Assembly (NCBI GenBank): GCA_951406725.2
Contig: OX597825.1
Location: 79,856,001-79,920,000 of the forward strand
DNA: 64,000 nt
Direction: 5' to 3'
From: Octopus vulgaris
Lineage: Eukaryota
Part shown: piece after piece, positions 18,969-56,867 of the stretch
Layout of the letters: each line of letters begins with the position of its first letter
Position numbering within the stretch: the first letter of the stretch is position 1
Made by a program: the position numbers and the translations under genes
Notes under the pieces: model-generated
What the model saw: only the letters and a program-made list of their open reading frames with translations
What the model was told of the DNA's origin: nothing
The model's database searches: none

Positions 18969-18990
18969 ATGTTACTGCTATCATTTTCAA
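18969..18990 (+). CDS. Gene B putative first coding exon portion (MLLLSFS; exon probably 18804-18990)
   Basis: ttctcctttacag acceptor at 18803; caa|gtatgt phase-1 donor matches exon 2; hydrophobic N-terminus, but the signal peptide is short so the start is uncertain. Confidence 0.5.
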
Positions 18991-19829
18991 GTATGTTAGT
19001 ATTCATATTAATCCATTTTACAAGTAAGTCCTCTTTGTTTTTTATATTTAATTGTGCAATCATGGCTGTGTTTGATCAAAAAGTTTGTTTTCAGGACAGT
19101 TTCTGTTGTATGGTACCTTGGATTACTGTCTTGCACAGTAGTCTCAGGCTGACTAGAGACTGTGGAGTGGAACTTCATATGTGGAGATTTGTAGAAGCTG
19201 CTTGTAGAGTCCATTTTTGTTCCTATTCTTGGGTGGTGGACTTCATCTATTACTTGGTTCAAACCTCCTCAAAACCAAACCACCTGAAATTGCACCTGTT
19301 TATATGATAGTAACTACCTGTTTTAATGTACTTGAAATTAAAACCTGGCATCTAAATTTCATGTTAATTTGTGTTTAAAACATAAGCTTGAAAATAACTA
19401 CATTATTTTACTGAATTCTTCATCATTTTCAATATGAATAGACAAAGGCAACATAAATATGGTAACATAAATGTGAAAGTGATCTCAGTTAAAACATCAT
19501 AATTGGTAGAGAAACAGAAAGTAGGAATCCATCAGAGAGAGCATTCCTATTACAGACTTCAATCTCCTCTCAATTTAATGTCACCAAATGGTCCTTAGGT
19601 ACCTTTTAAAAAAAAAGTGTTTTCTTTTACATATTAAGATGCACACACACACACACACACAGAGGTTAATAGTATAATGCTATATCTAAATACTATATGA
19701 ATACGGGTGTGTGAGTCCATGGAAGTGTGTCTGAAATCACACATCCATGTCCAAGAAATTCTTTGTCATGCATTCAAACAGGTTTTTTTTATTCATTTTG
19801 TATTGTTCTGTGGTAGAGTCTGAACATTT

Positions 19830-20900
19830 GTAAAATGGTCAAATTTTACAAAAACCATGGATTCCAAACAATATCTTCTTATATCCTTCATTCTAAACAT
19901 AAGAAAAAGAAAAAAAACATTCCCTCCAACTTAGCAGAAAGGATTTGCACGATTGTGTCAAATGTTAAAAAACATAATCAAAGTCTGAAAGGCCAGATCA
20001 AGTGTGAGGAAAAGTGCTGTTGCAGCACGCTGCTTTATTTAGCATTTATCAGTATATTTCTGGGTCCTCTTGTGTGACCAGTTGAACATAGTCCCAGTCA
20101 GTTTCTATCTACGTGAGATACCTTCTCATCTGCCATGACCATGTGGCATATGGTAAACCAGCATGAGCCATTTACACAGACTGGAAGAGCTGAAAGAAAT
20201 ACTAATTGAAAGAGCATTTCCATTCAATCTTATTGTGAATGGAATAGAAAGAGTAAAAATGTTTATATCTCCATTTTCTTAGAAAAGTAAAAAGTAAAGC
20301 CCCTCACAAAATGTTTTACTTTATGTCTCTACATTTAAACCAAGAAATAGTGAAATATTTAACTACGTACAAAACAACGAACCTTGAAAATCAAAAAATG
20401 GAAAAATTACTAGAAAATCAATTTGTTATTGAAAACAAAAGGTAACCAAAGACTTACAAGAATATTCTAACTTTCAGCAAAGCTTTTCAAACAATTGCCC
20501 AACCCCATGATTTCTAAATGTGGTAGCCTGAACTGTGGTACATGTCTGTACTTAAATGATAGCTTGGAATTCAAATTTAAGCACAGACATGTCTTCAAAG
20601 TAAAATAAAATTTCTCTTGCAACTTCTTATACTCAATTTATGCCATAACAAACTGTAGAAACTGCATCAGACTGATGGGATTATCACTTTGTGGACAATT
20701 GATGATGCACAAGCAAGAAATAAGGGGAGAAAAAAGAAAGAAAGAAACAGGAACACATAGTAACTTATACTGAAATGGAACCACCCAATTTAAAGATTTT
20801 TCCATTTTACAAATGCTCAGATTCTACCATGTAACATCTATGAACAAATAAAGGAAGAAAATTTATTATGAAATAAAAGCCTTGCTGGAATAATTGACAA
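19830..20900 (+). mobile_element. Decayed Penelope-like element (RT thumb and GIY-YIG region)
   Basis: YILHSKH..KNIPSNLAERICTIVSN thumb motif; CGSLNCGTCLYL Cys linker. Confidence 0.6.
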
Positions 20901-21114
20901 ACAATTTCAGGCAACTTAGGATACACTTGTATGGACACACATGCACACGCGCACACACACACATATTCACATAGTTTTTGATATATACAATCTACCATTA
21001 ACTCATGTGTGCATGGGTGCAAGTCATTATGTATGTGTGTGTGTATGAGAATATATGTATGTGTGTATGAGTAAATATGAACGTGTGTATCTATGTTTGT
21101 GTCTTTGTATTTAT

Positions 21115-21376
21115 TATAAGGGCTATTTGGTTGTTGTTGCTAGTAATCTTGATGGATTACCAAAGTAGGCACTCCAAAATATAAGGGCTATTTGGTTGTT
21201 GTTGCTAGTAATCTTGATGGATTACCAAAGTAGGCACTCCAAAATATAAGGGCTATTTGGTTGTTGTTGCTAGTAATCTTGATGGATTACCAAAGTAGGC
21301 ACTCCAAAATATAAGGGCTATTTGGTTATTGTTGCTAGTAATCATGATGGATTACTAAAGAAGGCACTTTGAAATA
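21115..21376. repeat. 65-bp tandem repeat x4 (three near-identical units, fourth diverged)
   Basis: gggctatttggtt at 21120, 21185, 21250, 21315. Confidence 0.95.
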
Positions 21377-22529
21377 TTTTTGACAAGCCTGAAACCAAAG
21401 TTCAACTAACCACTCCTTGTCTTACATGAAAGAATAATTATTAATCTATCTACCTATATTGCTGATTCTCTCCATGTATCTGCCTATCAATCTCTCTAGG
21501 GCAGTCCTTCATTTAAAAATCCTATCTTGTCACTCAAATTTCTAATGTACCCTTCCTAACCTTACAGTCTAAAGGCCATATCCTTTCATATTTTGTGTTT
21601 TATCTTGTTACCCTAGTTGTGTGTCCAGTTACAAAACTCTAACCCTTTATATTGCAAACACTATAGCTACTTTCACTTTATAAATCCACAACTACAATGG
21701 ATAAAACCAGTTATGTAAGTTAATAACATTGGATAGATTTAAATGAATTAAATTTGTCATGAAATATTACCATATTTCTCCTAATGTAACTGTGCATTTT
21801 TACCCATTTTAAAAATTTATATAACATTTGTACAGAAACTTTTAACACTTTTCCATCCATCCATCCATTCATCCATCCATATGATGGCTATGGTGGTGGT
21901 GGTGATGATGATGATGATGATTATGGTGGTAGTGGTGGTGGTTACGAGGATGATGATGGCAAGGATAATAATGATGTAGAGGTGGTGAAGTTTCATTTGA
22001 GAAATTATTCTTTTGTTGAGAGCTTTTTGACTTCTCTCTCTCTCTCTCTCTCTCTTATTTTTCTTTTTGCATTTTAGCATTGATCTAAAGGACATTGAAA
22101 TGTAAAAGACAATGGTAGACAAATTTTGACCATAGTGATTAAGTAACTCTTTCTGCTGCTTTAACATCAACCACTCAGTCATGAAATTAGAGTGGATGTT
22201 GTTAAAAAAATTACCTAGATTCAAATTTAAGTTTGATTCATGAAAAAAACATGCAAAAAGGGAAAAGAAAATTTTCTTTAGAAAAAATTAGTAAAGAATC
22301 CAAATTTACATGATTATTCATATTCTCATGTTATTTTCAAAAACAATTTCCATGTTCTTTACTAGTTTTCTTTGAATAACTAGACTGGTGCACCAGCTCG
22401 GCCACAGCATCTGATTGAAACCAATAACTGAATATTGGAATAGAACAGTTGACTAACTATTCACATTGTATTGTAAAAGTTTTTAGATGTTACAAAGATA
22501 AATTTGTTTCCCTTTTTTCTATTTGCCAG

Positions 22530-22726
22530 ATACTCATGCCACAATATGGGATGTAAAAGTTTGTCATACTGTGGTGTATCGCTCTTCAGTTCGCATGATT
22601 CTTAACAAGAAATTCGTAAGAGAAGTGGCAGCTTCAAAAGATCCTAAATGTTTTGAAATTACATTTAAATTGAATGATGAAGTAAAACCAAGTTATATTA
22701 AGCTACCTTACCCTATGGCTTATAAG
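22530..22726 (+). CDS. Gene B exon 2 (domain 1 N-part): THATIWDVKVCH...YPMAYK
   Basis: ttttttctatttgccag acceptor, aag|gtaagt donor, open, phase 1 to 0. Confidence 0.85.
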
Positions 22727-23798
22727 GTAAGTAAATTAAAACACACACGCATACACACATATGTATGCACATGCATTCATGCACACACACACTAATATAC
22801 CTATTTTATCAAAATTTATTCTATTTTAAATGAAATAAGATTAAACTGGTATTTTATAACACCAATAGCATAGTACACATTCTAAAAAAAAGAAAAACAT
22901 ACAGAAATTATGTAATGTCTTCACTTGACTGCTGTTTCAGAAAAGCAAAAGTTATGTAACAGTTGGCTTTCTTTGCAGGTATTCAATATATCTCTTATTA
23001 TAAAAGGCAGATTTTATCTGCCTCCCTTTGTCACTTATAGAAATCTACAATATAGGATTTCTTCAATTACAATTTACCTAGCATTTTTAAGAGTAGAATG
23101 CATCGGGTCATGCCAGGTCCAGTTTTTAAAATTTAAAACCAATTAAGCAAAATTTACAGAAAACTCACATTCTGGTGTGTATGTCAAATGCTTTTCTTAG
23201 TCTGGTTTACAGCACATGCAAACGCACACACACAGTGTACAACGAATAAAGTGAAACTAGATGTAATATTTGTTTCTGTCTATCACGCTGATAGATACAT
23301 GAGTAAAATGTATGGCAAGCTAAGAGATAAGAGTGAGTGAAAATGTTCTTGGAAGAGAGTAAATAGCGACAGAGTGATTTGAGGAAGACTAAACTGAAAG
23401 TATGAAACAGTGTTTATGTATAAACAGACGACACTTATATATAGTTATTAATAAATGTATGCATCCGTTTAACCCTTTCGTTACCAAACCGCCCGAATTT
23501 ACCTATTCATATTTAAATGAGAATATCAGAGTAAATCTCTTTAGTACATTCGTGAAAACACGTATTATACTTCGTAAACACTTCAAATACAGTTTTGTAC
23601 AAAAATCGAAGTGTAATTTTAATTCCGTGAATTATGGGAGATTTTTTTCCGAAATTTGTTCCTATTGTGTTTTCAAAATTTGTAATTCTGACAAAAAATG
23701 GATACGAATTTCATTATATCAAGCAGTGAGTCAGAATTCGAAGGATTTTCTACTGAAGACCTTCATAAATCTAACTCTATGACTGAAAAAAAAAAGCA

Positions 23799-24193
23799 TC
23801 TTTATATAAGAGTGAAGTTGTGTGTCTGTCTCCTACGATTTAGATTCGTAACTACTCCCACATTTTGCGGTGCAGTTTAACCAAAAGCGGGTATCTTATA
23901 GTCGTGATTCATATCGAGCCCTTCTGGGTATTAGCGCGCATCTACGATGAGTCTACGATTTAAAATAAATTTACCATCATATTTTTCCATTTTAATGCAG
24001 TTTTTTTCGCTTTTATATAAGGGAAGTAACTCTCTAAAAATATCTACGATGTGTCAACGATTTAAAAAAAATTTACCTTAATTTTTTTTCAATTTTTAAT
24101 GCATTTTTTTGCTATTTTTTGGCTATAACTCTCTAAAAATGCTTATATAGTTATTTCCCTTACAACCCGAGTAACGCCGGGCGATACTGCTAG
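23799..24193 (+). mobile_element. Non-autonomous Helitron
   Basis: A|TC 5' end, subterminal hairpin cccgagtaacgccggg (24166-24181), CTAG|T 3' end, no TSD. Confidence 0.75.
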
Positions 24194-24353
24194 TTTGAAT
24201 ATAAACTTGGATGCAAAGAGCTTGAAAATTTTCATCTATAAGGAATTGAACTTAATGCCCTTTGTATAAGTTTTATCTCTGAACTATGCAATAAAAGCTG
24301 ATGTAAACATTAAATATTAAATTAATAAGTTAGAAGACTAGAAAATAATAAGT

Positions 24354-24393
<40 letters not shown>

Positions 24394-24654
24394 CGCGCAC
24401 GTATGTTAATATTTGTTTTTATGTCAAGTTATATATAGGAGCCGTGTAACATTAAACTGAAAGGTAATTTCATATTTTTACCAGATACATACATATATTG
24501 GGTTGGTGCATAATCATTGCAGCTTTTTTTCAACAAATTTTATTCAACAAAAGCAATAAGAATACTTAACAAAGAAATCTTTAAATGACGGTCTGACCAT
24601 CTGCCAAGCAAATAGGAAGCAGTAATTGAACTATATTTAAGAGATGAGGAATTA

Positions 24655-24850
24655 TGTACATTATTTACATTCGACGGATATTTCTCCTCATTTTGTTTGT
24701 TGTTAACACAATGTTTCAGCTGATATACCCTCCAGCTTTCTTCAGGTGTCTTGGGGAACCTGGGTTCTCATTGCTAAGGTATGAACATTATGTTAACAAC
24801 AAACAAGATGAGGACAAATATCTGTCAAATGTAAATAATGTAAATAATGT
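24655..24850. mobile_element. Penelope-type inverted-repeat remnant containing a hammerhead motif
   Basis: 24657-24708 inverted at 24791-24850; hammerhead on minus strand 24705-24750. Confidence 0.65.
24705..24750 (-). ncRNA. Minimal hammerhead ribozyme motif (stem III mutated)
   Basis: gacac-CTGAAGA-a-agctg..cagct-GAAAC-att-gtgtt; stems I and II pair. Confidence 0.55.
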
Positions 24851-25376
24851 ATCATCATCATCGTTTAACGTCCACTTTCCATGCTGGCATGGGTTGGATG
24901 GTTTGACTGAGCACTGGCAAGTCAGGAGGCTGCATCAGTCTCCAGTCTGATCAGGCACTAAGAATAAAGGAAAGGTGAAATTACTTCCTGCTTTTATAGC
25001 AAGTTGATGCAGGTAGTTTATCCTGTCCCTCTCTGACTTAGTTCATACAACTGAAAAAAAACAGCATTATTTATGGATGACCCAATATTTGAAAAAATGA
25101 ATAGGAATGGCTTTTCTGATCATTTTCCCACTTTAATAATTAGATTCTTTTATTTTTTTACTCTGTTACTTGTTTCAGTCATTTGACTATGGCCATGCTG
25201 GAGAATCAGCTTTTAGTTGAAGAAATTGACTCCTGGAATTTTTCTTTGTAAGCTTGGTTCTTATTCTGTTGGTCTCTTCTGCCAACCTGCCAGGTTATAC
25301 GGATGTAAATGCACAACAACAGTTGTCAAGCGATGGTGGTGGGAACAAACACACATACATATATATATATACATAT

Positions 25377-25534: not shown

Positions 25535-25544
25535 TATATACATA

Positions 25545-25597
<53 letters not shown>

Positions 25598-26475: not shown

Positions 26476-26515
<40 letters not shown>

Positions 26516-27301: not shown

Positions 27302-27389
27302 GCATTTGTTCAAAATCACCATCTTCATGAAATGTATGTTGCTAAGTGCCAGGCAGATTGTTCAACAGTTGATTCTGAATTAGAAAGAT
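27302..27389 (+). CDS. Gene B exon 3 (domain 1 C-part): AFVQNHHLHEMYVAKCQADCSTVDSELER
   Basis: ttctgttttag acceptor, gat|gtaaga donor; phase 0 to 1 bridges exons 2 and 4 (t+gg = Trp). Confidence 0.8.
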
Positions 27390-29979: not shown

Positions 29980-31645
29980 TTCATCATCATCATCATCATT
30001 GTTTAATGACCACTTTCTATGCTGGCATGTGTTAGACGATTTGACTGAGGATTTGTGAGCTGGATGGCTACACCCGGCTGCAATCTGATCTGACAGAATT
30101 TCAACAGCTGGATGCCGTTCCTAATGCCAGCCACTCCAAGAGTGTAGTGGGTGCTTTTATGTGCCACCAGCATGAGGGTGAGTCAGGTGGTACTGACAAT
30201 GGCCAGGCTCAAATGGTGTTTATTACGTGTCACATGCACAGGAGCCAGTCCAGTGGCACTGGCAACGACCTCGCTTGAATATTGCTTTTCACGTGCCACC
30301 GGCACAAGTACCAGTAAGGCAATGCTGGTAACGATCACGCTCAAATGCTGCTTTTTACGTGCCACCGGCATGGGAGCCAGTCAGCAGCCCTGACAACGAT
30401 CATGCTCGGATGGTGCTCTTAGCGCTCCACTAGCATGGAGGCCAGTCATGTGGTGCTGTCATCAAATTTGATTTTGATTTTACTTGCCTCAACAGGTCTT
30501 CACAAGCACAGTTTAGTGTCCAATGAAGGAAAGGTATGCATAAGTGGGCTGGTTACACTCCTGGCATAAGCCACAGGTTATGGTCTCACTTGGCTTGCTG
30601 GTTCTTCTCAAGCACAGTATATTTCCAAAGGTCTCAGTCACTAGTCATTACCTCTGTGAAACCTAATGTTCAAATGTCATGCTTCACCACCTCATCCCAG
30701 GTCTTCTTGGGTTTGCCTCTTCCACAGGTTCCCTCAAATGCTAGGGTGTGGCATTTTTCACACAGCTATCTTCATCCATTCTCACCATATGACCATACCA
30801 GTGCAGTCGTCTCTCTTGCATGCCACATCTGATGCTTCTTAGGTCCAACTTTTCTCTCAAGGCACTTACACTCTGTTGAGTATGTACATTGACATTACAC
30901 ATCAATCGGACCGCACTGGCTTCATTTCTTACAAGCTTATGCATATCCTCAGCAGTCACAGCCCATGTTTCACTGCCGTGAAGCATCTCTGTTTGTAAAC
31001 ATGCGTCATACAGTCCACCTTTTACTCTGAGCGAGAGGCCCTTTGTCACCAGCAGAGGTAGGATCTCTCTGAACTTTGCTCAGGCTATTCTTATTCTAGC
31101 AGCTACACTTTCAGAGCACCCACCCCCACTACTGACTTGGTCACCTAGGTAATGGAAGCTATCAACTACTTCTAGTTTTTCTCCCTGGAATGTGGCAGAA
31201 GTTGTTCTCTGCACATTTTCAGGGTTTATTGCTCCTGAGCATCTGCCACATACAAAAACTATCTTCCCAGTTAGCCTTCCTTTGATGTTGCTGCACTTCT
31301 TATGTATCCATAGCTTACACTGGGTACATCTTATAGAGTTTCTACCTATGCCTTTACTACAGATCAAGCAGGGCCATCTACCTGAAGGGATTTGTGGTTT
31401 GTCTGCCTTCCTACTTATTAGGACTTTGGTTTTAGCTAGGTTGACTCTAAAGCCCTTCGATTCTAATCCTTGCTTCCACACCTGAAACTGGTCCTCTAGT
31501 TCTGATAGAAACTCAGCAATTAGAGCAAGGTCATTAGCACAGAGGAGCTCCCAGGTGCATCCTGTCTTGAGTTTCTCTGTTATTGCCTGGAAGACTATGA
31601 TAAATAGGAGGGGGCTGAGGACTGAACCTTGGTGGACCCATCCTT
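29980..31645 (-). mobile_element. RTE LINE (RT C-terminal part plus internally repetitive 3' UTR)
   Basis: VHQGSVLSPLLF, LLCANDL (YADD decayed), GRWPC..C..C..WIHKKC, LHGSETW. Confidence 0.93.
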
Positions 31646-31835
31646 TGAGCATTTTCCACATGAAAAGAAGTGTCCTAATCTGTATTGGAAGAGCAGAGAA
31701 AGTAAATGGCTTTCAATCATATTCTAATAATTTCATTTTAAATCCGCTCTTCTTATAAAACAATTATTGTGTTATGATTATTAATTTTGAAATGTTGTTT
31801 TCACTGATGGGCAAATTTGTTCTGTTACTTTCTAG

Positions 31836-32041
31836 GGGTACACTGGAAAATGTCAGTTATACATAGTAAGATGTATGACAATGATGAATATTCTTTTGAA
31901 ATAAAGCCTTATGGTAAAAACTACTTAAAGTTTAGAGCAAATTATAAAACAACACATGCACCGTTCTTTCTCCCAACGGAAATGAATACAAAGTCAAGAT
32001 TAGAGTTATCGACAACAGGAAAATTTTGGCTGGACAAGACT
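31836..32041 (+). CDS. Gene B exon 4 (domain 2 N-part): VHWKMSVIH...GKFWLDKT
   Basis: ttactttctag acceptor, act|gtgagt donor, phase 1 to 0, open. Confidence 0.87.
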
Positions 32042-32967: not shown

Positions 32968-33061
32968 ATCAAACTGAAAAACATGGAAACTTCCAAAATA
33001 TATTCCTGTATTTATCTTCTTAAACAAAGTAATCCTTACCATGAGTGTTCATTGAGAAGTG
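32968..33061 (+). CDS. Gene B exon 5 (domain 2 C-part): IKLKNMETSKIYSCIYLLKQSNPYHECSLRS
   Basis: Long polypyrimidine acceptor, gtg|gtaagt donor, 94 nt, phase 0 to 1. Confidence 0.88.
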
Positions 33062-33867: not shown

Positions 33868-34683
33868 TGTGGTGTATGCGAGAGATTCGAAATAAAGGCA
33901 CCTACCTTCTCTTCGCTCAGATGGAGACCCTTCAGCGGTAATGGATCCTTCAACACAGCCCGATCCAAACGCTAGAAATAGCAGCTGCTTTTCCCAACCT
34001 TAACAACGGCGACCTCGATTGAAAGGCAGAATCCTGCCCTAACTACGCGCGCATCACTTCTGCCGCGTATTCGTCCACCTGTCCTCCCATCCATCTAATC
34101 GTACCCAGCTTAGCAAAAGCTGTGTACTCACACTCTCTGTAGGCATCCCTCAGACGTTGCTCTATCTTTTCCTCACTCAGACGTTCTTTCTCGTCCATCT
34201 CAAGATATAGCGTCAACGCGCTCCCTTCCAAATACAGCACCATAAGACTTGCCACATTGCTTATACCTTGCAGTCTTGCCACCAGCCTGATTTTACGCAT
34301 CCAGGTCACTACATCACCTTCACCATTAAAGGGTCTGATAATGTTGCTGGCGATCCTGATTTTCGCCGCCATTGTGGTGACGTCTTATATGGAGAGCCGA
34401 AATAGCTTGTGGTGTATGCGAGAGATTCGAAATAAAGGCACCTTCCTTCTCTTCGCTCAGATGGAGACCCTTCAGCGATAGTGGATCTTTCAACACAGCT
34501 CGACCCGAACGCTAGAAATAGCAGCTGCTTTTCCCAACCTTAACAACGTGCTGGCCTGTCTTACTCACTCAGCGACCTCGATCGAAAGGCAGAATCCTGC
34601 CCTACCTGCACACTCGTCACTGCTGCCCCTTCCGGTCAGCCCCAAGTTCCGGTCAGCTCCCCAGCTGCTGACGTCATCCCACA
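33868..34683 (-). mobile_element. Internally deleted Ty3/Gypsy-type LTR retrotransposon (5' LTR 34408-34683, gag 34372-34043, partial 3' LTR 33868-34041)
   Basis: TGT..ACA LTR ends, 5-bp TSD gctcc (33863-33867, 34684-34688), gag N-terminus IRPFNGEGDVVTWMRKIRLVARLQ..LYLEGSAL. Confidence 0.9.
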
Positions 34684-36112: not shown

Positions 36113-36345
36113 ATCTTGAGTGGAAAATAGAACTAAGCTCTCTATCCAAACTAATTAAAAATATAGAAGAAATAAAGATATCTGTTGGAGTGACTGGCAG
36201 TGGAACAAATTCTTCACAAAGTCTAACATTCAAAAAGTTAGCTTATCTCCCAACATTCTCTGCTTTTACTAATATAGGAAAAATAGGCATTGGTGAGGCT
36301 GAAATATACTTTAAAGACAGTAGCAAATCTTTTGACATATCCAAA
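36113..36345 (+). CDS. Gene B exon 6 (domain 3 N-part): LEWKIELSS...FKDSSKSFDISK
   Basis: tttcttctttag acceptor, aaa|gtaaga donor, phase 1 to 0, open. Confidence 0.88.
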
Positions 36346-36620
36346 GTAAGAATTTTCACCTTTTTGAATTCTGTGTTTGCTTTTTTATTTTAAGAAGACA
36401 GTAACAAATATTTTGACATATTCAAAGTAAGAATTTTCACCTTTTTGAATTCTGTGTTTGCTTTTATATTTTAAGAAGACAGTAGCAAATATTTTGACAT
36501 ATTCAAAGTAAGAATTTTCACCTTTTTGAATTCTGTGTTTGCTTTTATATTTTAAGAAGGCAGTAGCAAATATTTTGACATATTCAAAGTAAGAATTTTT
36601 ACCTTGAATTCTGTTTGCTA
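36311..36620 (+). repeat. 81-bp minisatellite x4 spanning the exon 6 / intron 6 junction
   Basis: gta(g/a)caaat at 36320, 36401, 36482, 36563; each unit carries aaa|gtaaga. Confidence 0.95.
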
Positions 36621-37507: not shown

Positions 37508-37601
37508 ATTGTCTTGACAAGAATACATACTAAAGAAGAATACGGTTGTGTTAACATACATAAGACAATCCCAGCTAAATATTCATGTAAACTACAGAAA
37601 A
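37508..37601 (+). CDS. Gene B exon 7 (domain 3 C-part): IVLTRIHTKEEYGCVNIHKTIPAKYSCKLQK
   Basis: ttttcag acceptor, aaa|gtaaga donor, 94 nt like exon 5 with the same YxC-x12-CxL spacing. Confidence 0.88.
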
Positions 37602-41046: not shown

Positions 41047-41146
41047 ATAAGTGTGATCAGCAATTACTCGGAGTATCAATTTAAAACAAATGTAGAAGGA
41101 AAATTTCAGATTTTCTCGGTGACAGAATTTTCTCGAATAACAAAAG
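41047..41146 (+). CDS. Gene B exon 9 (domain 4 C-part): ISVISNYSEYQFKTNVEGKFQIFSVTEFSRITK
   Basis: aattttcag acceptor, aag|gtatat donor, phase 0 to 1. Confidence 0.82.
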
Positions 41147-42959: not shown

Positions 42960-45910
42960 ATCATCATCATCATCATCGTTTAATGTCCGCTTTCCATGCT
43001 AGCATGGGTTGGACGAATGACTGAGGGCTGGCGAACCAGATGGCTGCACCAGGCTTCAATCTTGATCTGGCAGAGTTTCTACAGCTTGATGCCCTTCCTA
43101 ACACCAACCACTCCGAGAGTGTAGTGGGTGCTTTTACGTGTCACCGGCACGGGGCCAGTCAGGTGGTACTGGCAACGACCTCACTCAAATCTTTTACACA
43201 TGCCACCAGCACAGGTGCCAGTAAGGCAATGCTGGTAACGATCACGCTCGAATGGTGTCTTTTATGTGCCACCTGCACGGAGGCCAGATAGCCGCTCTGG
43301 CAAGGATCACGCTCGTATGGTGCTCTTTAAGGCGACACTGGTAATGATCATGCTCGAATGGTGCCTTTTAAGTGCCACTGGCATGGAAGCCAGTTAGCCA
43401 CTCTGTCAATGATCACATTCGTAAAGTGCTCTTTGCACCCCGCTAGCACGGACGCCAGTCATCAAATTTGATTTTGATTTTTGATTTTAAATTTTTGATT
43501 TCACTTGCCTCAACAGGTCTTTGCAAGCAGAGTTTTACTGTCCAAAGAAGGAAAAGGTACACATAAGTGGGCTGGTTACGCCCCTGGCATAGGCCATGAG
43601 ATTATGGTCTCATTTGGCTTACCGGGTCTTCTCAAGCATAGCATATTTCCAAAAGTCTCGGTCTCTAGTCATTTCCTCAGTGAGGCCTAAAGTTCGAAGG
43701 TCGTGCTTCACCACCTCGTCCCAGGTCTTCCTGGGTCTACCTCTTCCATAGGTTCCCTCGACCGCAAGGGTGTGGGACTTTTTCACACTGCTGTCCTCAT
43801 CCATTCTCACCACATGACCATACCAGCGCAGTCATCTCTTTTGCACACCACATCTGATACTTCTTAGGCCCAACATTTCTCTCAAGGTACTTACACTCTG
43901 TCGAGTATGCACACTGTCATTACACATCCATCAGATCATACTGGCTTCATTCCTTGCAAGCTTACGCATGTCCTCAGCAGTCACAGCCCATGTTTCACTG
44001 CCATGTAGCATGGCTGTTCGTACATATGCGTCATACAGTCTACCTTTTACTCTGAGCGAGAGGCCCTTTGTCACTAGCAGAGGTAAGAGCTTGCTGAACT
44101 TTGCCCAAGGTAACGGTAACGGAAGCTATCAACTACTTCTAGTTTTTCTCCCTGGAATGTGGTGGAAGTTGTTCTCTGCACATTTTCAGCACCTGAGCAT
44201 TTGCCACATACGAAACTATCTTCCCAGTTAGCCTCCCTTTGATATTGCTGCACCTCTTATGTGTCCATAGCTTACACTGAGTACATCTTATAGAGTTTCT
44301 ACCTACGCCTTTTCTACAGATCGAGTAGGGCCATCAACCTGAAGGGATTTGTGGTTTGCCTACCTTCCTATTTATTAGGACTTTGGTTTTAGCTAGGTTG
44401 ACTCTAAGACCCTTCAATTCTAATCCTTGTTTCCACACCTGAAACTTCTCCTCTAGTTCTGATAGTGACTCAGCAATTAGAGCAAGGTCATCAGCATAGA
44501 GGAGCTCCCAGGGGCATCCTGTCTTGAATTCTTCTGTTATTGCCTGGAGGACTATGATAAATAGGAGGGGGCTGAGAACTGATCCTTGGTGGACCCCAAC
44601 CTCTACCCTGAATTCAATGTACTCGTTGCCAACCCTTACCTTACTTACAGCATCCCTGTACATGGCTTGCACTACTCTCACTAACCATTCATCTATCCCT
44701 AGTTTCCTCATTGACCACCAGATAAGGGATCAGGGGACCCTGTCAAAGGCTTTCTCCATGTCAATGAAAGCCAGGTACAGGGGCTTATCTTTGGCTAGGT
44801 ACTTCTTCTGCAGCTGTCTTACCAGAAATATGGCATCAGTCGTGCTTTTCCCTGGCACGAAACCAAACTGCATCTCATCCAAGCAGACTCTCTCCCTAAT
44901 CAGTTGGGCTATACGACCCTCTCCGTAACCTTCATTACCTGATCCAACAGCTTGATACCTCTGTAATTATTTGTATCTAAAGCGTCACCTTTACCTTTGT
45001 AGCAGTTGACTATTATGCTGCTACACCAGTCATTGGGAATGACTCCTTCATGTATCACCTGGTTAACTATATGGGTGACTAGTCAATAGCCAACACTGCC
45101 AGATATTTTGAGCATCTCTGCAGTAATTCCTGATGGGCCTGGGGCTTTCCATGTCTTCATACTTCTAATTGCCTTATCTACCAAGGTACTGTCAATTTGG
45201 ATAGCTGGTCCCTCTGTTGGGTCAACATTTGGCAGACTCTCTTTCTCACATTCATTTTCTTTATTCAGGAACCTTTCATAGTGGCATCTCCAGACCTCTC
45301 TCTTAGCATCCTCAATTAGTGCAAGTGAATCATCATCCATGCGAACACATTTCTCTCCTACCACATCATGATTCTCTCTCATACACTGTCTTACAACACG
45401 AAATACCTCAAGTCTTTCGTCCTTGCGGCACAGAACATTGGCCAATTTTTTCTTATCTGCTTCCTCTCTGGCTAAATAAACCTGCCTCCTAGCTTCCCTC
45501 CTGGCAGTCTGATAAACTTCCCAGCTACCACCGTTCTTCCAAGCCTGTTTCTTTTGTCTAATAGCCCTGTCAACAACAATGTTCCACTACCACGTTATTT
45601 TGGGTCAAGATGGGACTTTGCACCATCCACAGATCTGGTCGGTGGCCCTTAGCAGGTTGTCCCGTAGGAACCTCCAGTTGTCTTCTATACCATGTGAAGC
45701 TATATTCCCTTCTATTTCATCAAAGGCTTTGAGTAATATGTCTCTAAATCTCTGTCCATTTGCGGGATCTTTAAGTCTCCAGACTCTTCTCCTTGCTGGT
45801 CGCCTTCTGGGCAACCATTTAGCCCTTACCCAGAAGTCACTAACTACCAGCCTATGTTGTGGGGTACATTCTTCGCCTGGGAAGGTTTTGGCATTTATAA
45901 GCAGCCATCT
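42960..45910 (-). mobile_element. ~3-kb RTE LINE (end of endonuclease region, RT, 3' UTR), frameshifted
   Basis: QHRLVVSDF, KAPGPSGITAEMLK, GVHQGSVLSPLLF, LLYADDLAL, GRGRPRKTW. Confidence 0.95.
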
Positions 45911-46310
45911 TATACAAACATACATACATATATATGTACATAAATACACCTCTGTGTGTAAATATATTTGCATACACACACACGTATGTTGGTGACTGGA
46001 AGAACATCTAGTCATAGAAAATCTGCCTCAATAAATTCCATCTGTTCCATGCAAGAATGGAAAAGTGGATATCAAAATGATGCTGATGATGATGTTAGCT
46101 ATCTGTTCATCATTTGATGTTGCCATCAACTATTTCTTGTTTCCAAAAATTTATCACAAACTGAATGGTTCTCCCAAATTGGTGGCATCAATGATTGAAA
46201 TGGACAATCTTTACATGAAACAGGATTGAACTTCTCAGATCAATAATTGTGTTAGAGTGTTTCAGAGATATTTTTGCCAATTTCTAATAAATATTTTGTC
46301 TACTTTTCAG

Positions 46311-46352
46311 AGAAACTACACAGGAATGAAACAAATGTCTCCATAATAATAG
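46311..46352 (+). CDS. Gene B exon 10 (stalk): (E)KLHRNETNVSIII
   Basis: tacttttcag acceptor, tag|gtaatt donor, phase 1 to 1; sequons NET and NVS; runs into the TM helix. Confidence 0.8.
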
Positions 46353-47673: not shown

Positions 47674-47723
<50 letters not shown>

Positions 47724-47724
<1 letters not shown>

Positions 47725-49351
47725 TTTTGCGGCCAAAATGTTCAGAACGGCATTGTTTTTGCCAGAAAAGTAGGTATTAGTTTTTAACAAAATTGTTTTA
47801 TGTTCTACAATTTTCACAGACAATAAATACAATATTAATTGTTATTGTCTGATGTAATTTTGATGTAATTTGAGAGGATAATACAAAAGGTATGGATGAT
47901 TTAGTGATTTACTGCAAAACCTATGGCGGGCAAAATTATCAGAACGGTTGAAAACATAACAAAATAATCAAAAATGACAGAGAATACTGGAATTATTTAA
48001 TATTTAGTGTGAAGCCCTTTAGCTTCAATCACACTTTGACATCTTCGACTGCATGAGGAAATAAAATTTTCAATTTCTTGCTAGGTGATCTTATTCCATT
48101 CTTCCTGAAGGGCATTCCATAATTGCTCGGTTGTTTTAGGATTTCTGGCTTTCAAACTTTCTCCTAGAATATTCCACACATTTTCAATAGGATTGAGATC
48201 TGGGCTTTGAGCAGGCCAATCCATAATAATAACCTTTTCAGCCTTGAGGAAGTTCATGACCACCTTAGCCTTGTGACATGGGGCATTGTCCTGCATGAAT
48301 ATGGGTGGTCGCTTAGTTGAATTTCTCAGCACAGGCAAGACATGATCTTTTACAAGTTGTCTATAAACTCCTGCATTTACCTTTCCATGTAATCGCACCA
48401 AAGAGCCCACACCATCTCCAGATATCATTCCCCAAATCAGGACACTTCCTCCACCGAATTTAACACAGTCTTAAGGCATTTAGGCGACAATTTTTCACCT
48501 ACTTTTCAATGAACGTACCTTTTCCCATCTGAGCCAAATAACATAAACTTAGATTCATCACTGAAATGCACCGTTTGCCATTTTTCTTGAGACCACAACA
48601 CATGTTCGGTTGCAAAGGTAAGACGACACTTTTTATTTTTGGAGCTGATCAGTGGCTTCACTGCAGGTTCTCTTGCTTGTAGGTTATGTTCAACTAAATG
48701 ATGAAACACAGTTTTTCGACATAACGTTTTCTTCAGTACAATGCTCATTTCCCAAGAAACAGCAGCAGCAGTTTTAAATCTGTCCTTTTTAACCAACTTT
48801 ACCATAGCACAATCTTCTCTCTTGGTCGTTTTTCTTGGCCTACCTGTAGACTTTCTTGCTTTACATGAACCACAATCATCGAAGACCTTAAGAATACCAT
48901 GAAAAACACTTTTTGACTTGTTAACAATCTTTGCAATAGACCCAATACTTAAATTATCCTTCTTTCGAAGCTTAATAATCTGCTGACGAATTGGTAACGG
49001 AGTAAGTGGCATTATATTAACAAAGTACACTGCAGATATTCTTACTAATGTTTAATAAACGAACCATCACGTAAACAAATTCAAAACATTAGAGTTCGCC
49101 AGTTAAATATACTAAAACACGGAGTAAAAGCAACCGTTCTGATCATTTTGGCCGCCATGGGTTTTGCAGTAAATCACTAAATCATCCATAACTTTTGTAT
49201 TATCCGCTCAAATTACACCAAAATCTCAGACAATAACAATTAATATTGTATTTATTGTGTGTGAAAATTACAGAATATAAAACAACTTTGATAAAAACTT
49301 ATACGTACTTTTCTGTTGAAAACAATGCCGTTCTGAACATTTTGGCCGCAA

Positions 49352-49354
<3 letters not shown>
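47724..49354 (-). mobile_element. Full-length Tc1 (DD34E) element with ~225-bp IR/DR-type TIRs, copy B only
   Basis: TA-flanked; TIRs 47724-47950 / 49131-49354 with internal direct repeat gcggccaaaatgttcagaacgg; 1631 bp. Confidence 0.95.
47997..49012 (-). pseudogene. Tc1 transposase pseudogene
   Basis: GRPRKTT, FSDESKF, QDNAPCH, 34 residues from D to E in SPDLNPIE; stops at 48506 and 48081, frameshift near 48465. Confidence 0.92.
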
Positions 49355-49403
<49 letters not shown>

Positions 49404-50019: not shown

Positions 50020-50083
50020 TTATTGGCCTCTCTGCAGTCCTCACGTCATTTTTGATCATCATCATCATCATACTCTGTATCAG
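50020..50083 (+). CDS. Gene B exon 11 (transmembrane)
   Basis: cttctttag acceptor, cag|gtaaag donor; with exon 10 gives SIIIVIGLSAVLTSFLIIIIIILCI followed by basic RYNILKNKRSK. Confidence 0.9.
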
Positions 50084-50234: not shown

Positions 50235-50277
<43 letters not shown>

Positions 50278-52811
50278 CAAAGGTAATAAACACAACAAAC
50301 GGAAATCATCAAAGTTAAATTTGCAGGAAAAGGATGATAGTACAACAACAGCAAACAGTACAAAACAAGATACACAGATCATTCGCAGCCAATTGCTTCT
50401 TCAATTGGAGTCTAGAATGTCCATATAGTTTGGTCTGATTCTCTTTAATACTACTTGAAACCTGTTGGGTCAAGGGCTTAAGCTGAAGTCATTAAGCCCC
50501 TGAGCAAGGCAAATGAATGTACATATACAAACACAAGGAAATGACAAACAGACAGGGTCTTTCAACTATCAAACGAATGTAACAAGAAATAGAATTATAC
50601 ATATACAATGGACCAAAGGAAAATAATTATTCAATTACAACAAAAATAAAACAAAGCAGAGTCTTTCTCCTATTAGACAGTGTAAGTAAGCTAGCTCAAG
50701 GGAAAAGGAAAGGGAAAATCTTAACCAGCCAGGTGGTGAGACAGAACAGATGTGACTGACCTCAAAGGCAGTCAACAGAAAAAGGATGACAATGCATAAA
50801 CCAGACAGCAATATATGAATATATATTATATTATATTATATTATATTACATTATTATTATATTATATTATATTATATTATATTATATTATATTATATCAT
50901 ATTATATCATGTTATATTATATATATAGATATAGATATTGGATTGGCCAAAAAACTTGTGCCTAGTTTTAATCAAAAATTAGGCACAAGTTTTAAACAAA
51001 ATGATTTATTCAATCAATGATATAATCATATTTTTGTTCCAGTATCTTCCAATATCCATTATACCTTGTTCGATGAATTTCTTGACTTTACTAGCATAAA
51101 AACTTTTCATGATGAATTTTTACATTCTCCTCAGAGTTGAAGGTCTGTTCATTTAATGAATTTTGAAGAAACTTAAACAGGTGGAAATCTGAAGGCACCA
51201 GTTCAATATTTGAATATTGAGGGTGTGGCAAACTAACCCAGCCAATCCCTAGTAAATTCTGTCATGTCTACAAAGAAGTGTGCAGTCTGGCATTGTCCTA
51301 ATGAAAGACATTACCCTAATGATTAGCAAGTGCTGGATGCTTCTGGTGGATCACTGCATTTAATTTGTCCAGCTGGTTATGGTACACATCAGAATTGATA
51401 GCCCTATCTGTCCAAAGTAACGTATAAAAGATGACATCTTTCCAGTTCCACCTAACTGAAAACATAATCTTCTTTAGGCAAAGTCCTGCTTTGGAGGTTG
51501 TTTGTGGTGGTTTGCAGCACTTCCCTCGTGATATTTTGTGCTTTACATCATTATAGATTATCTAACTTCAGTCTGTGAACTTGTGAGAAAACAGGATGTA
51601 TTTTGCATGCTCAGGACTACTCTGAAAATGGAAACTGAAAACAAAAATTATTAACACCTCACGCTATTTTATTTTTAAAAATCAAGACAAGAAAAGTAGC
51701 AGAAACCTGCAGGAAGATATGCACCGTGTACAGAAAGGATGCTGTTGCAGAGCATGTCTCAGAAATAGTTTTCAAGATTTCAATCAGGCATGGCCTAGTG
51801 GTTGGTGTGTTGCACTCATGATTGTCAGATCATGGGTTCAATTCCCAGATTGGGTGGTGTGTGGTGTTTTTGAGCAAAGCACTTCACTTCACATTACTCT
51901 AGTGCTGAGTAGGAACCAGATAATCAAAAAATAGGATCTAACGTTTCCTTTGTGCATCATAAAATGTATGTTGTTTTGCCTTGCTATAAAGGATGGACTA
52001 CAGCAAATATTCTGCTCAATACCACAGATTTGCTCGTCAGTTGCTTGATCTTAACTAGTTGAGCATTATTTGCCTTTGTGGCTGACAATATGTGCATCTC
52101 TAATCACGAGCAGAAGTAATGGGGGAGCATCATAGCCATGTGTTGAGGGGAATTCTTTGGTGCTTGAATAATTCACGTCAGAACTATGGGTGTTTTGTTC
52201 ATCCTTAAACAAACCTTATTTGGGGATCTTTTGAGCAGGATAGGCTACTCAACCTGAAGAAAATTCTAACTGGACCTTACCTGCAAGGTCATGTATTGTT
52301 TATGTTGATATGAGATCAACATGCTGTACACATATGGTTGTGATGCATAGACCTAGTGTACCCTTATCAGATGGGTATTCATGATGGGCATATTGGGCTT
52401 CGTATATTTGTACCCCAGGGTCACTTTGATGACATGCATTGCTCTCTCACTCAATGATAATGATAATAATAATTAAAGTGACGTACAAAGGATATATTTA
52501 TCATGAAAAGGTGGAAGAAGAGGTATGATAGGTTGCAATGATTGTGTAGAAAGTGAAACAAAAAGTTTTGGTTGGTATATTCAGAACAGTACAGAACTAT
52601 TATTTCATGGGAGTTAAATTGGCTGTAAGATTTTTAAAGAGATGATTAAAGATTCTGGGACAGTTGAATAATTTGGGTCAAATCTAATTGGTTATTCGAC
52701 GTACACATTTCTGATATATGTCAGTAATGACTTTCTCACTGGTACACTTGTCTGTATATTGCATAAATGTAATTCTTTTTCCCTATATAAATTGAACTTC
52801 ATACTCAAGTC

Positions 52812-52886
52812 CTGATGAAGCAATAAGATATTATTCAAGCACTCAACTATGAGTCCACTGCATCTTATAGCAGAAAAAGCTGTAAG
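52812..52886 (+). ncRNA. Decayed hammerhead ribozyme motif with long stem II
   Basis: CTGATGA-a-gcaataagat..atcttatagc-a-GAAAaagctGTA. Confidence 0.45.
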
Positions 52887-53284
52887 CTAATGAAGTTCAT
52901 AACATAACCATTGTTTTTCTTGTGTCATCTCTTTTTCTTATATATATATTGAATATAGAGTCTGGTAAGTTACAATTTTATTTATCTTATAATAAAGTTA
53001 AGTTTATATATTTTGTTATATTTCTGTTATAATTTCGTTAAATTATAATTTTGTTATATTAATCTATTTGTATGTAATCTCTTTATATTTGAAATAGATT
53101 TATTTAGTTGTTTATTTAATCTATTTTATTTATGTGTGTGTGTATATAGGTGTATATGTATATATTGAGTATTGTATGTATGTACATGTATGTATGTGTG
53201 TGCATATGTGTATGTGTGTGTATATATGTATGTATATATGTATATGTATGTATGTGTGTATGTATGTGTATATGTATATATATG

Positions 53285-53317
<33 letters not shown>

Positions 53318-55132
53318 GTATATATATATATGTATATGTATGCATATTTTTATATATTTATGTATACGTATGTATAGTTATACTGCAAACTTTTGATAAG
53401 TATTTTATAGATTTGGTTATGATCACTAATTTTAGCTTATAACTATAAGAGTATGGGGAAAGACTTTATAGTATGATGAGGGGTTACTATATAAAAAATT
53501 TTTTTTATATATTTATTAATCATATAAGATTTTTAGGATATATTTAATAATTAGTGGTTTTTAATCATTTAAATTATTTAATTTATTTTGTATTAAGTAT
53601 TATTTATCATAGTTATTTTATTAATAAATATTATAGTATAGAGAGATTTTATTCTTTATTTGTGACTTCATTCTATTTACACTGATAAACCATTAATGTT
53701 CACATCCACAATCTCATTGATAAAGCATATGTTCCTCATGCTTAATGAATTCTTCAACAATTTATTCTTTTTTTGCTAATAACGTAATTCCACGAGTATT
53801 CTTATAAACGCTGTAAAGACGTTTTCCAATTCAAAATTTTAGTTCATTACTAAACCTCGCTAAGATAGGTATTTATTTATATTTAAGATCTTCAAATTGT
53901 AAATTTTAATATTTTATAAGTCTTTGGTGTAATAATATTTTCCTTATGTAAATATCGTTGTTTATGTAATGATCTAATTATCGTAATTTTCTATATTATT
54001 AGATATTAAATTTAAGTTTATTCGTAAGATACTACTTAGCGATAGATTTGTTGTTTGATAGCAAGTATACGAGGTGTATAAAGTTAGGCTTTTGTATATA
54101 CATGTTTTAATAGTATTAATTGTAGTTTTAAATTTCTTATAATTAAATTAGTTAAACTTTGATAAACTTAGATATGTTTCGACTAAAGATTGGTCCAGGC
54201 CATGTTTAATTTAATAGCATAACTTAGTTATTATCTTTTTAAATTGATATTCGCTAGTTATTCCCATTGATAATTATATTTATAGTATTTATAGTATTTA
54301 TTCGATACTATATTACTACGAATTGATTATTTCTATAAGTATTTTACATAAGATTTCCGAAAGTTTGTTTAAGTTTGTTTATTTGTATTTTTGAAATTAG
54401 CTATTTCATCTTTAAATATGAAAAATTAATTTATTAGGTTTTTATATATGTGCATATATATTTATTTATAGAGATTATTTTAGATTTTAATTATAATATT
54501 TATTTATATACATTTATATATTTTCATTGATAATTTATATATAATAGTCATTTTTAAATATTTATGTAATTAGATATAGATTTTTACCGATATTAGATTA
54601 TTGGTGGGTTTCCTACCTTATAAATTAAAATTAATATTTAACATTATAGTCGATTTTGATATAATCATAATTGTTAAGTTTTATGTTTCTAGTTTGATAA
54701 TAGAGTTTATTATAAGTAAAATTATTATATTATTTATATCTTAAAAATATTGTTTAAATATTTCTGATTATTTTTAAATATTTCAATTAACCTGAATATT
54801 GACTGTAACTATAACTCGAATTATTAATTGAATTTAAATTATTGTTATTCGAATTGGTACAGCCATGAAACGATCGTAGTGTTTTACTCTTTATCTTTTA
54901 TTAAACTTTTAATATTTTTGATATATTTAAAATAATATAAATTAAATTAATTTTATGTATTGGCTTATGTTTTTCACTGTTTGATTTGCCTAATAGTGGT
55001 TTTATCTCTAATTTAATATAATATAATATAATATATTTATACTATAAAATTGGATTTGATCCTAAATCTGATTTTTCCCTGTAAGTTTGGATTTATTCCC
55101 TAATATTTTATTATTAATATATATATAGACAA

Positions 55133-55134
55133 AC

Positions 55135-55202
<68 letters not shown>
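55133..55202. repeat. (GATA)n microsatellite
   Basis: Direct reading. Confidence 0.95.
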
Positions 55203-55249
55203 TGGAGGAGATAGAGATAAAGGAAAGGAAAAAAATGTTTTAGTAGGTT

Positions 55250-55897
55250 TAGTAGACCTTTGGAAATATGCTGTGCGTGAAAAGACCAGGCAGGACAAGT
55301 GAGTCCAGCCCACTTATGCATGCCTTTCCTCCCTTGGACACACAAAGACCTGTTGAGGCAAGCGAAGTCGATATCGAACCTCATCCGACGACAGGCACCT
55401 ATGCCAACCCCTTTGCTTGCGAAGACCTGTTGGGGCAAGTGAAATCGGAATCGAAATTGAACCAATCCTATGACTGGCACCCGGCAGATGCTAGGACCCC
55501 TGGACTGGAGATACGTAAAAAGCACTATCCGAATCGTGGCCGATGCCAGCGCCGCCTCGACTGGCTTCCGTGTCGGTGGCACATAAAAAGCACCATCCGA
55601 ATCGTGGCCGAAGCCAGTGCCGCCTTGACTGGCTTCCGTGCAGGTGACACGTAAAATGCACCAATCCGACCGTGGCCGATGCCAGCCTCGCCTGGCACCA
55701 GTGCAGGTGGCACATAAAAGGCACCCACTACACTCACGGAGTGGTTGGCGTTAGGAAGGGCATCCAGCTGTAGAAACATTGCCAGATAAGACCGGAGCGT
55801 GGTGCAGCTTTCTGGCTTCCCAGATCCCCGATCGAACCGTCCAACCCATACTAGCATGGAGAACGGACGTTAAACGATGATGATGATGATGATGATG
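55250..55897 (+). mobile_element. CpG-rich RTE LINE 3' end, sense orientation
   Basis: Ends ctagcatggagaacggacgttaaac(gat)n; internal ~62-bp 3' UTR repeats. Confidence 0.88.
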
Positions 55898-55934
55898 TAT
55901 ATATATAAATATGTGTATATATATGTATATATAT

Positions 55935-56002
<68 letters not shown>

Positions 56003-56560
56003 GTATGCATAATTGGATGAAAACAGCTTTCTCTCTCTTTCTCTCTCTCCCTTTCTCCCTGCTTTTTTTTTTGACGATGCACACAAACACCAAATTGAGT
56101 CGCCATGATTGTTCACAAACTCCATATTTTTTTTTGTTCTCTATTTCCTCATGTTCATTTCTGTTGAAGAGTGTAGACTCGAAATATAAAAAACTTTCTC
56201 ACCTTCCCAAGCATCAAACTAATACACCGGCTTGTTGTTTATACACGGGTCTTCGTCTTTTGTTTTTCTGTAAATTTCAACTATATAAATATATATATAC
56301 TCACAAACAAGCGTGCATTCCCATACACAAGCACACTTACACAAATATGCATGCATACATATAAGTGGGTGTTTGTATGCACAGGGCAAAAAAATCAGTG
56401 AGAAATGGGGCGAGAGAAAGAGAGAGATGTTTCCATCAAGTTGTACATACATACATACATACAGACAGACAGACAGACAAACAGACATATACACACACAG
56501 GTGTGCATGTGCACACACCCACACACATACCTATCACCACACATATATTGTCTATTGCAG

Positions 56561-56867
56561 ATATAATATACTCAAAAACAAAAGAAGCAAAGATTACATG
56601 CCAACTCATCAAGTCTGTCAAGTCAACCAAGTCAATCAAGCTGTTCAAGTTGATGAAATCGACCAAGCTGATCAAGTTGATGAAATTGGCCAAGATAATG
56701 TAGTCTATGAAACCTTGCCTGAAGAGAATATCCGGTGTGCCGTGCAAAATTCAGAATCAGTTTATGACCAAGAAATTGGATTACAATTATCCTCTCCACA
56801 GCAAAACCCTGGGGGTCCATATGAAAACCAAGATCCAGGATCAGCGTATTACATCATGGTAAATTGA
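56561..56867 (+). CDS. Gene B exon 12 (cytoplasmic tail with ITIM-like VVYETL, SVYDQE, PYENQ, AYYIMV)
   Basis: tctattgcag acceptor, phase 2 matches exon 11 (ag+a = Arg), open to TGA 56865-56867. Confidence 0.9.

Follow-up and report, generated by a model that had tools for sequence, protein, structure and literature searches.

A clustered octopus gene family of receptor-like proteins with predicted PLAT-like ectodomains, a fast-evolving outer module and tyrosine-containing tails

We analysed a 64,000-nucleotide stretch of the Octopus vulgaris genome (assembly GCA_951406725.2, contig OX597825.1, positions 79,856,001 to 79,920,000), called the window below. It holds a gene for a single-pass membrane protein, which we label copy B, flanked by a full upstream tandem neighbour, copy A (C12, 79.814-79.861 Mb), and a full downstream one, copy C (79.926-79.956 Mb). 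A first-pass annotation of the sequence had proposed a tandemly arrayed receptor with four PLAT-like extracellular domains and a tail bearing an ITIM (immunoreceptor tyrosine-based inhibitory motif). The tandem arrangement is confirmed, with three full copies in ~145 kb.

The twelve exons proposed for B join into 1677 nt, or 558 residues, with a stop only at the end, and all 11 introns are GT-AG with agreeing phases. The end of exon 1 required revision. The donor first chosen, at 18990 (GTATGT), cuts the signal peptide short. We prefer a GTAAGT donor at 19024 (exon end 19023), which is in the same phase, completes the signal peptide, gives a protein of 569 residues, and raises the peak 11-residue hydropathy of the N-terminus from 1.05 to 2.35. 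Two RefSeq X1 isoforms with the longer first exon, XP_029643555.1 of O. sinensis and XP_014775771.1 of O. bimaculoides, have N-termini that agree with this end. The corrected protein is 87% identical to the former and 84% identical to the latter, in an alignment of 569 columns with 1 gap position. Because that alignment is nearly gapless, the exon junctions are not due to chance, and on these comparisons of sequence we conclude that the gene is real. Its exons are matched by proteins that databases list under Octopus vulgaris, O. sinensis and O. bimaculoides, and the multiple annotated isoforms in two species suggest, given how such models are built, transcript support. A strong acceptor-like site at ~18803, 166 nt 5' of the ATG, suggests an upstream non-coding exon. 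The features of the locus, in window coordinates, are:

18969..19023, forward strand: exon 1 as corrected, signal peptide, 55 nt, phase 1 (GTAAGT donor at 19024, orthologue N-termini)
22530..22726, forward strand: exon 2, long exon of module 1 (phase 1-0), the membrane-distal module, which diversifies most strongly (selection test; Z 9.2 to the DENND5A/R6IP1 PLAT)
27302..27389, forward strand: exon 3, module 1 short exon (phase 0-1), from the splice join
31836..32041, forward strand: exon 4, module 2 long exon, PLAT fold presumed without a direct match
32968..33061, forward strand: exon 5, module 2 short exon, Cys pair C196/C209
32000..33000, no strand: approximate crossover zone, 5' side like copy C, 3' side like copy A
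36113..36345, forward strand: exon 6, module 3 long exon (structure matches)
36314..36605, no strand: 81-bp minisatellite that originates from the junction of exon 6 and intron 6
37508..37601, forward strand: exon 7, module 3 short exon, Cys pair C305/C318
40713..40942, forward strand: exon 8, long exon of module 4, the membrane-proximal and best-conserved module (Z 9.2 to the lipoprotein lipase PLAT)
41047..41146, forward strand: exon 9, module 4 short exon
46311..46352, forward strand: exon 10, short stalk with two N-glycosylation sequons
50020..50083, forward strand: exon 11, transmembrane helix without charged residues, plus juxtamembrane Cys466; annotated isoforms in two other Octopus species skip it
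56561..56867, forward strand: exon 12, cytoplasmic tail (Y517 VVYETL, Y555 GPYENQ, Y564 AYYIM) and stop
56920..56952, forward strand: DIEQLYTQP relic, out of frame, 3' of the stop; coding in a distant paralogue and Argonauta
1962..2025, forward strand: copy A transmembrane exon
4600..5130, forward strand: copy A tail exon, broken at ~4758-5011 by the 81-bp minisatellite

The protein consists of a signal peptide, four modules (residues ~19-113, 114-213, 214-322 and 323-432), a 14-residue stalk, a transmembrane helix adjoined by a juxtamembrane Cys and a basic patch, and a disordered cytoplasmic tail of ~100 residues. The proposed two-exon modules (a long phase 1-0 exon followed by a short phase 0-1 exon), their W-led starts, the transmembrane exon and the motifs VVYETL, YENQ and YYIM are all present. 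The modules lie between a signal peptide and the sole transmembrane helix, and single-pass topology is supported. We found no catalytic domain in the protein, and its transmembrane helix has no charged residue of the kind used for pairing with DAP12/FcR-gamma-type adaptors. Among the four modules there is no significant sequence similarity (best HHalign probability 5%). Skipping of exon 11 would give a computed 493-residue product without a membrane anchor, and isoforms of this type are annotated in O. sinensis and O. bimaculoides.

The gene belongs to a family. Searching the genome with the module-3 exon gave 16 matches at 15 loci (10 on C12, 2 on C10 and 3 on C26), a lower bound for the family in O. 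vulgaris. There were no internal stops among the long-exon matches listed, and most paralogous long exons keep a phase-1 acceptor and a phase-0 donor at homologous positions. A profile search of 1.84 billion representatives matched 33 proteins, and the named ectodomain matches belong either to three Octopus species or to Argonauta hians, which has 2 such genes (26% and 33% identical). The named matches included no squid, cuttlefish or other mollusc, with 14 of the 30 ectodomain matches not looked up. The last 3 of the 33 align in the transmembrane region only, and the 2 that we checked are unrelated (a fish protocadherin and a nematode protein). A word-based search from the Argonauta alignment returned solely its own first sequence, which is weak evidence. 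In a quick tree (a careful tree search did not finish), the two Argonauta proteins stand outside the 25 Octopus rows, and these fall into several clades that each span more than one species; most duplication is therefore older than these species, and some is recent. The earlier description of a clustered, lineage-restricted family with a fast-changing tail is supported.

We note several further features of the family. Module number varies: one paralogue (G000:C12:84046978-84049971; P0014, P0015) has five modules through duplication of module 2, and module 4 is absent from P0012 and P0017. Inverted pairs of members lie at G000:C10:16.84-16.91 Mb and G000:C26:34.89-34.96 Mb, the C26 pair with identical exon-search scores. 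The database model P0001 is a read-through that fuses three tandem genes and skips exons 7-8, and we did not use it as evidence of structure. A 78-nt segment duplicated at 12652-12729 and 63544-63621 is an exon in P0001; it may be non-coding or an artefact of the prediction. One isoform bears the UniRef name 'Vitellogenin domain-containing', for which there is no Pfam backing. We found no description of this family in the literature, although closed journals, unseen supplements and the O. bimaculoides genome paper could hold one: 6 LOC ids of the family had no match in the full texts searched, 6 O. sinensis ids are absent from 3 readable supplements of PMC9712504, and the accessible portion of PMC9068888 does not mention PLAT.

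The proposal of a PLAT-like ectodomain was upheld for modules 1, 3 and 4 by structure prediction and a shared intron position, and extends to module 2 by likeness. A model of the full protein (19-row alignment, 553 residues, mean predicted local distance difference test score (pLDDT) 69) has an all-beta ectodomain. Against 48,161 chains, its top 7 matches were all PLAT proteins, which aligned with module 1 or module 4 (Z 8.3-9.2, root-mean-square deviation (rmsd) 2.4-3.2, 91-100 residues). Module 1 best matched R6IP1 (Z 9.2, rmsd 2.6, 95 aligned) and module 4 lipoprotein lipase (Z 9.2, rmsd 3.2, 100 aligned); the remaining chains were pancreatic lipase-related protein 2 and four lipoxygenases. 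When module 3 was folded by itself (27 rows, pLDDT 85), PLAT proteins took ranks 1-9 (Z 9.8 to 5.9, rank 1 with rmsd 3.2 over 104 aligned residues), with the best other fold at Z 5.8, and every row listed by Foldseek was PLAT-bearing (best E 2.6e-4, probability 1.0). Modules 1, 3 and 4 are predicted as two-sheet, eight-stranded beta-sandwiches like solved PLAT domains. For module 2 we infer the same fold because its model has eight predicted strands, its exon phases are the same, and it has a C-x12-C ending as in module 3; its intron is in register with that of a canonical PLAT on C19, in a global alignment of low probability. Cytokine-receptor FN3/Ig chains reached Z 4.4-5.1, at least 3 units below the PLAT matches, so the models give no Ig or FN3 assignment. 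The four modules are predicted to be degenerate PLAT domains, module 2 by this likeness.

Gene structure offers support for PLAT identity that is independent of folding. Sixteen PLAT matches in the O. vulgaris genome are Pfam-positive, and a phase-1 start with a phase-0 intron in strand 6 occurs in 2 of them (C19 and C11). The C19 gene (G000:C19:57202194-57211540, L110) has a 248-nt phase 1-0 exon ending W-Y-L-V-K and then an 88-nt phase 0-1 exon, the layout of our modules; its next exon, in phase 1, encodes a Ser/Thr (mucin) stalk and a transmembrane helix, and its 5' end was not found. A multi-PLAT locus on C11, presumably LOXHD1, has one exon with the same phase 1-0 boundaries. The lipoxygenase-type PLATs are without the strand-6 phase-0 intron. 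A gene on C23 (3.59 Mb; L080:1024-3057), which may be a retrocopy, is an intronless open reading frame for a signal peptide, a canonical PLAT, a mucin stalk and a transmembrane helix. A phase 1-1 extracellular PLAT module thus exists in this genome, and such a module is a plausible source of the four described here. The C19 and C23 type I proteins also mean that this family is not alone in placing a PLAT on the outer side of a membrane protein. These two proteins have in common a juxtamembrane motif, ELTVD..LS..KR.K.SA.D.R.SA.AIG, before the transmembrane helix.

Several results weigh against the PLAT assignment. PF01477 gave no match above cut-off in 10 exon translations or 6 full proteins, it is absent among the best 25 of 46 families listed for the 33 members, none of the family loci is among the 16 genome-wide Pfam matches, and HHalign of the modules against octopus PLATs gave probabilities < 1%. 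No PLAT chain aligned to module 2 in the full-model structure search. Z values of 8-10 are near the range that the tool calls common, yet the matches are all of one family and well above the next. The best profile comparison, module 2 against the C19 PLAT, was equalled by 7 of 300 shuffles and was one of 8 tests, and is not significant. Other searches gave no lead. Foldseek matches for the complete model of 553 residues were uninformative (TM-score ~0.1). Sequence searches for a known family were null in Pfam (weak transmembrane-type matches only), solved-structure sequences and the ESM Atlas (no usable match), and the 20 kb downstream of 4 octopus lipase loci held no significant match that would point to an origin from a lipase C-terminal domain.

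Relative to known PLAT/LH2 domains (PF01477; PDB 6u7m, 2oxe, 1lox, 3cwz), the modules would have the same ~100-residue eight-stranded sandwich, which in lipases is also extracellular, but they are only 8-18% identical, lack a Pfam match and have lost the loop motifs discussed below. Unlike in PLAT enzymes, four modules follow one another on a membrane-anchored protein that carries no enzyme. The C19 and C23 proteins also place a PLAT outside one transmembrane helix (with a signal peptide seen for C23), and C19 has the same phase 1-0 / 0-1 exon pair, but both have one canonical PLAT, a long Ser/Thr stalk and a very short tail, and neither has significant similarity to our modules. LOXHD1 resembles the present protein in its tandem PLAT repeats; its repeats are numerous and canonical, it is not known to have a signal peptide or transmembrane helix, and it is single-copy and conserved, whereas copy B combines four degenerate modules with a signal peptide and a transmembrane helix. 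Polycystin-1 and sea urchin REJ proteins are PLAT-bearing membrane proteins as well. According to the accessible part of PMC1934368, the polycystin PLAT follows the first transmembrane helix and is intracellular, unlike the extracellular modules here; Pfam found no REJ, GPS or PKD domains in the 6 full proteins of the family that were searched. A parallel in expansion is found in the spider mite Tetranychus, for which the accessible text of PMC6288829 describes a lineage-specific clustered expansion of divergent single-PLAT-domain proteins, most missing the Pfam model; those are short, with no transmembrane helix or signalling tail described.

We compared 15 tails, one per gene, drawn from 29 candidates after isoforms, near-duplicates and models without a transmembrane helix were dropped (the P0051 tail looks mis-predicted). 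One aligned column holds a Tyr in 12/15 tails and a YxN in 9/15, including Argonauta IYQN and PYEN of copy B. YxN binds Grb2, and an acidic-I/V-Y context is a Src-type substrate. YxN occurs 12 times against 4.3 expected, [IVL]Y[EADST] 17 times against 3.3, and acidic residues near Tyr number 77 against 48. The tails are related by descent, so the P-values of these shuffle-based comparisons are too optimistic; retention of a Tyr by position in a tail that can hardly be aligned is the better evidence. The Grb2-type site of the first-pass annotation is thus supported, and its p85-type YxxM site is not kept, relatives having YYII and YYIT. Copy C keeps 2 of 6 distal tyrosines, and those of YETL, YEN and YYIM are absent. 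DIEQLYTQP, the out-of-frame relic behind the stop of copy B, is coding in an O. bimaculoides paralogue and in Argonauta.

Mean protein identity among 11-12 paralogues is 31% for module 1, 39% for modules 2 and 3, and 51% for module 4. Codon models were fitted to the in-genome long exons of modules 1-4 (12/12, 14/15, 15/16 and 11/13 loci, with short or duplicate rows removed). M0 omega was 1.50, 0.84, 1.18 and 0.56, and the M2a-versus-M1a likelihood ratio (LR) 17.7, 17.1, 13.6 and 14.3, respectively. In module 1, a class with omega 2.7 takes in ~40% of sites. The LR and omega observed for this module were not reached in any of 140 neutral simulations; the maximum LR was 11.9, and 4/140 passed the nominal 5% threshold. 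As a control we used 6 lipoxygenase-type PLAT exons, for which omega was 0.24 and LR 0; they come from a cluster of at least 6 exons at G000:C20:70.11-70.47 Mb (L071-L077) under purifying selection. By these codon models, positive selection is shown, strongest in the membrane-distal module 1, and module 4 is under purifying selection. Two limits count against this result: the codon model was home-written and had 57-75 codons per exon to work on, and gene conversion and chimerism, which are present here, can inflate the test, the simulations having covered module 1 only and being recombination-free.

Copy B itself has a mixed ancestry. Its exons 2-4 have 64 sites in common with C against 7 with A, and exons 5-11 have 25 in common with A against 7 with C. 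B follows C through exons 2-4 and their introns; from around exon 5 onwards, as far as the window reaches, it follows A. Unequal crossover between A and C would be expected to yield such a gene, and by its site pattern copy B is a crossover chimera of its neighbours. As a consequence, B and C have a near-identical tip and different tails, recombination having joined the tip of C to the tyrosine-rich tail of A. In the module-1 exons, B and C differ at 7 non-synonymous and 0 synonymous sites.

Repeats and mobile elements are also found at the locus. An 81-bp minisatellite that combines the last part of exon 6 with the splice donor occurs in the window at 36314-36605, 4758-5011 and 5237-5350, and outside it at G000:C12:79834440-79843668 and 79852952-79855543. 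In intron 6 of copy A it extends for ~9 kb (~100 or more units) and is followed by a second exon-6 copy without a phase-1 acceptor; the same repeat, which arose at the exon 6 donor region, interrupts the tail exon of A. Intron 10 of B holds a Tc1/mariner-like element at ~47705-49372, with inverted ends and broken transposase frames, that is not in copy A. Decayed long interspersed element (LINE)-like or Penelope-like reverse-transcriptase and gag-like fragments lie in introns and intergenic DNA at 13285-14546, 16459-17271, 30741-31712, 34043-34384 and 44334-46027; all these mobile-element labels are putative, assigned by motif.

We consider about evenly poised the view that these proteins are diversifying recognition receptors built on a PLAT scaffold, which probably bind variable or foreign ligands and signal through tail tyrosines via SH2 adaptors such as Grb2. 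The outermost module changes unusually fast, which makes a recognition receptor likely, and an immune or recognition role gains support from the signature of positive selection. In the mechanism that we propose, a rigid four-domain ectodomain would present module 1, aided by module 3, to a variable ligand; once the receptor is clustered, its tail would be phosphorylated by Src-type kinases and bound by SH2 adaptors, Grb2-type ones among them; and tail-poor and soluble forms would act as decoys or tuners. The fold in this scheme is predicted, and ligand binding at module 1, phosphorylation, adaptor recruitment and the decoy role are inferred, Src-type kinases being invoked for a protein with neither a catalytic domain nor a charged transmembrane residue. 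More tentatively, octopods may possess a variable immune or self/non-self receptor system on PLAT, a scaffold not known in that role, in which a shuffled two-exon extracellular module was quadruplicated, lost its lipid-binding loops and is diversifying, while unequal crossover swaps tips and tails. As a part of that same tentative reading, signalling, signalling-poor and soluble versions with near-identical tips could be a functional analogue of vertebrate paired receptors.

The family has features by which recognition receptors of the Ig superfamily work, namely clustering, distal diversification, tyrosine-containing tails, soluble forms and intergenic recombination. The vertebrate CEACAM, LILR and NITR families work in similar ways. 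In their accessible parts, PMC9546547 and PMC12582321 describe Hydractinia Alr and Botryllus FcoR as type I proteins that are clustered and restricted to their lineage, vary in the distal domain, diverge in their tyrosine-motif tails, have splice variants and undergo intergenic recombination, as here. All of these families differ in having Ig or FN3 domains and canonical ITIM, ITAM or hemITAM motifs; the octopus proteins have a PLAT-like scaffold, and their sites are mostly YxN and acidic YxxL or YxxP.

Against the reading preferred here, positive selection also fits gamete recognition, allorecognition, or a pathogen entry receptor escaping its ligand. A self-recognition or adhesion code, in which module 1 binds like modules on other cells (homophilically or among particular paralogues, in the manner of Hydractinia Alr proteins) and diversification creates new identities, would have the layout of Alr and FcoR just described and the purely non-synonymous differences between B and C in its favour; octopuses are solitary and without colony fusion, and ~15 loci make a small code, so we think this rather unlikely. 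We rate as improbable a reproductive protein of sperm, egg or reproductive tract diversified by sexual selection or conflict. Lineage restriction, a fast distal domain and duplications are typical of gamete proteins, and omega exceeds 1 in module 1, but multi-tyrosine tails kept from Argonauta to Octopus, together with soluble isoforms, better fit signalling receptors.

A sensor of lipid, lipoprotein or membrane surfaces that uses PLAT as lipases and lipoxygenases do, also raised by the first-pass annotation, has a slim chance. The predicted fold would suit it. The canonical loop motifs TG-x4-[AS]-x-T-[DN] and F-x-x-G, which are linked to calcium and membrane binding and are present in most canonical PLAT exons of this genome, are absent by inspection from all four modules, which disfavours the role, and an invariant lipid ligand would not predict positive selection. 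The accessible part of PMC9457329 cuts both ways: the lipoprotein lipase PLAT works extracellularly with a lipid-binding Trp-rich loop, and it also binds a protein, GPIHBP1.

Very unlikely, in our judgement, is a classical ITIM inhibitory receptor that recruits SHP-type phosphatases, the role implied by the tail as first annotated. VVYETL (residues 515-520, Y517) does fit the consensus [ILVS]xYxx[ILV] in copy B, and a YET[L/I/F] core is kept in 4/5 members of the A/B/C clade. Full consensus is found in only 1/5 of that clade, the counterparts being EVYETI (copy A), EVYETL (O. bimaculoides) and EVYETF (an O. sinensis gene), with a deletion in copy C, and in 2/15 tails against 2.43 expected by shuffling (P 0.70); the motif is single rather than tandem and sits in an insertion private to the clade, beside a 27-nt tandem repeat. 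Neither conserved nor above chance, the ITIM is not borne out. Least probable of all is that the extra copies are assembly duplicates or decaying pseudogenes whose fast change is relaxed constraint: A and B are 97-99% identical across many kb, the tail exon of A is interrupted and omega is near 1 at many sites, but all long exons examined are open with splice phases kept in most paralogues, distinct gene models of C-type, B-type 5' and A/B-type 3' kind exist in O. sinensis, neutrality does not explain omega > 1, and module 4 is under purifying selection.

Diversified families of tyrosine-motif receptors are known on Ig, C-type lectin and leucine-rich repeat scaffolds. The diversifying-receptor reading of the octopus family places it among systems of this known kind; what would set it apart is the unusual PLAT scaffold. 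If this reading is true, tandem extracellular PLAT would be an additional scaffold for such receptors, and a domain usually attached to enzymes or used for membrane binding in the cytosol would have been recruited as a variable binding head. Module 1, as the selected domain, could be used as bait, and copies B and C, with a near-identical tip and different tails, form a natural pair for signalling tests. The immune and self-recognition receptors of cephalopods are poorly defined, and this family offers ~15 concrete candidates.

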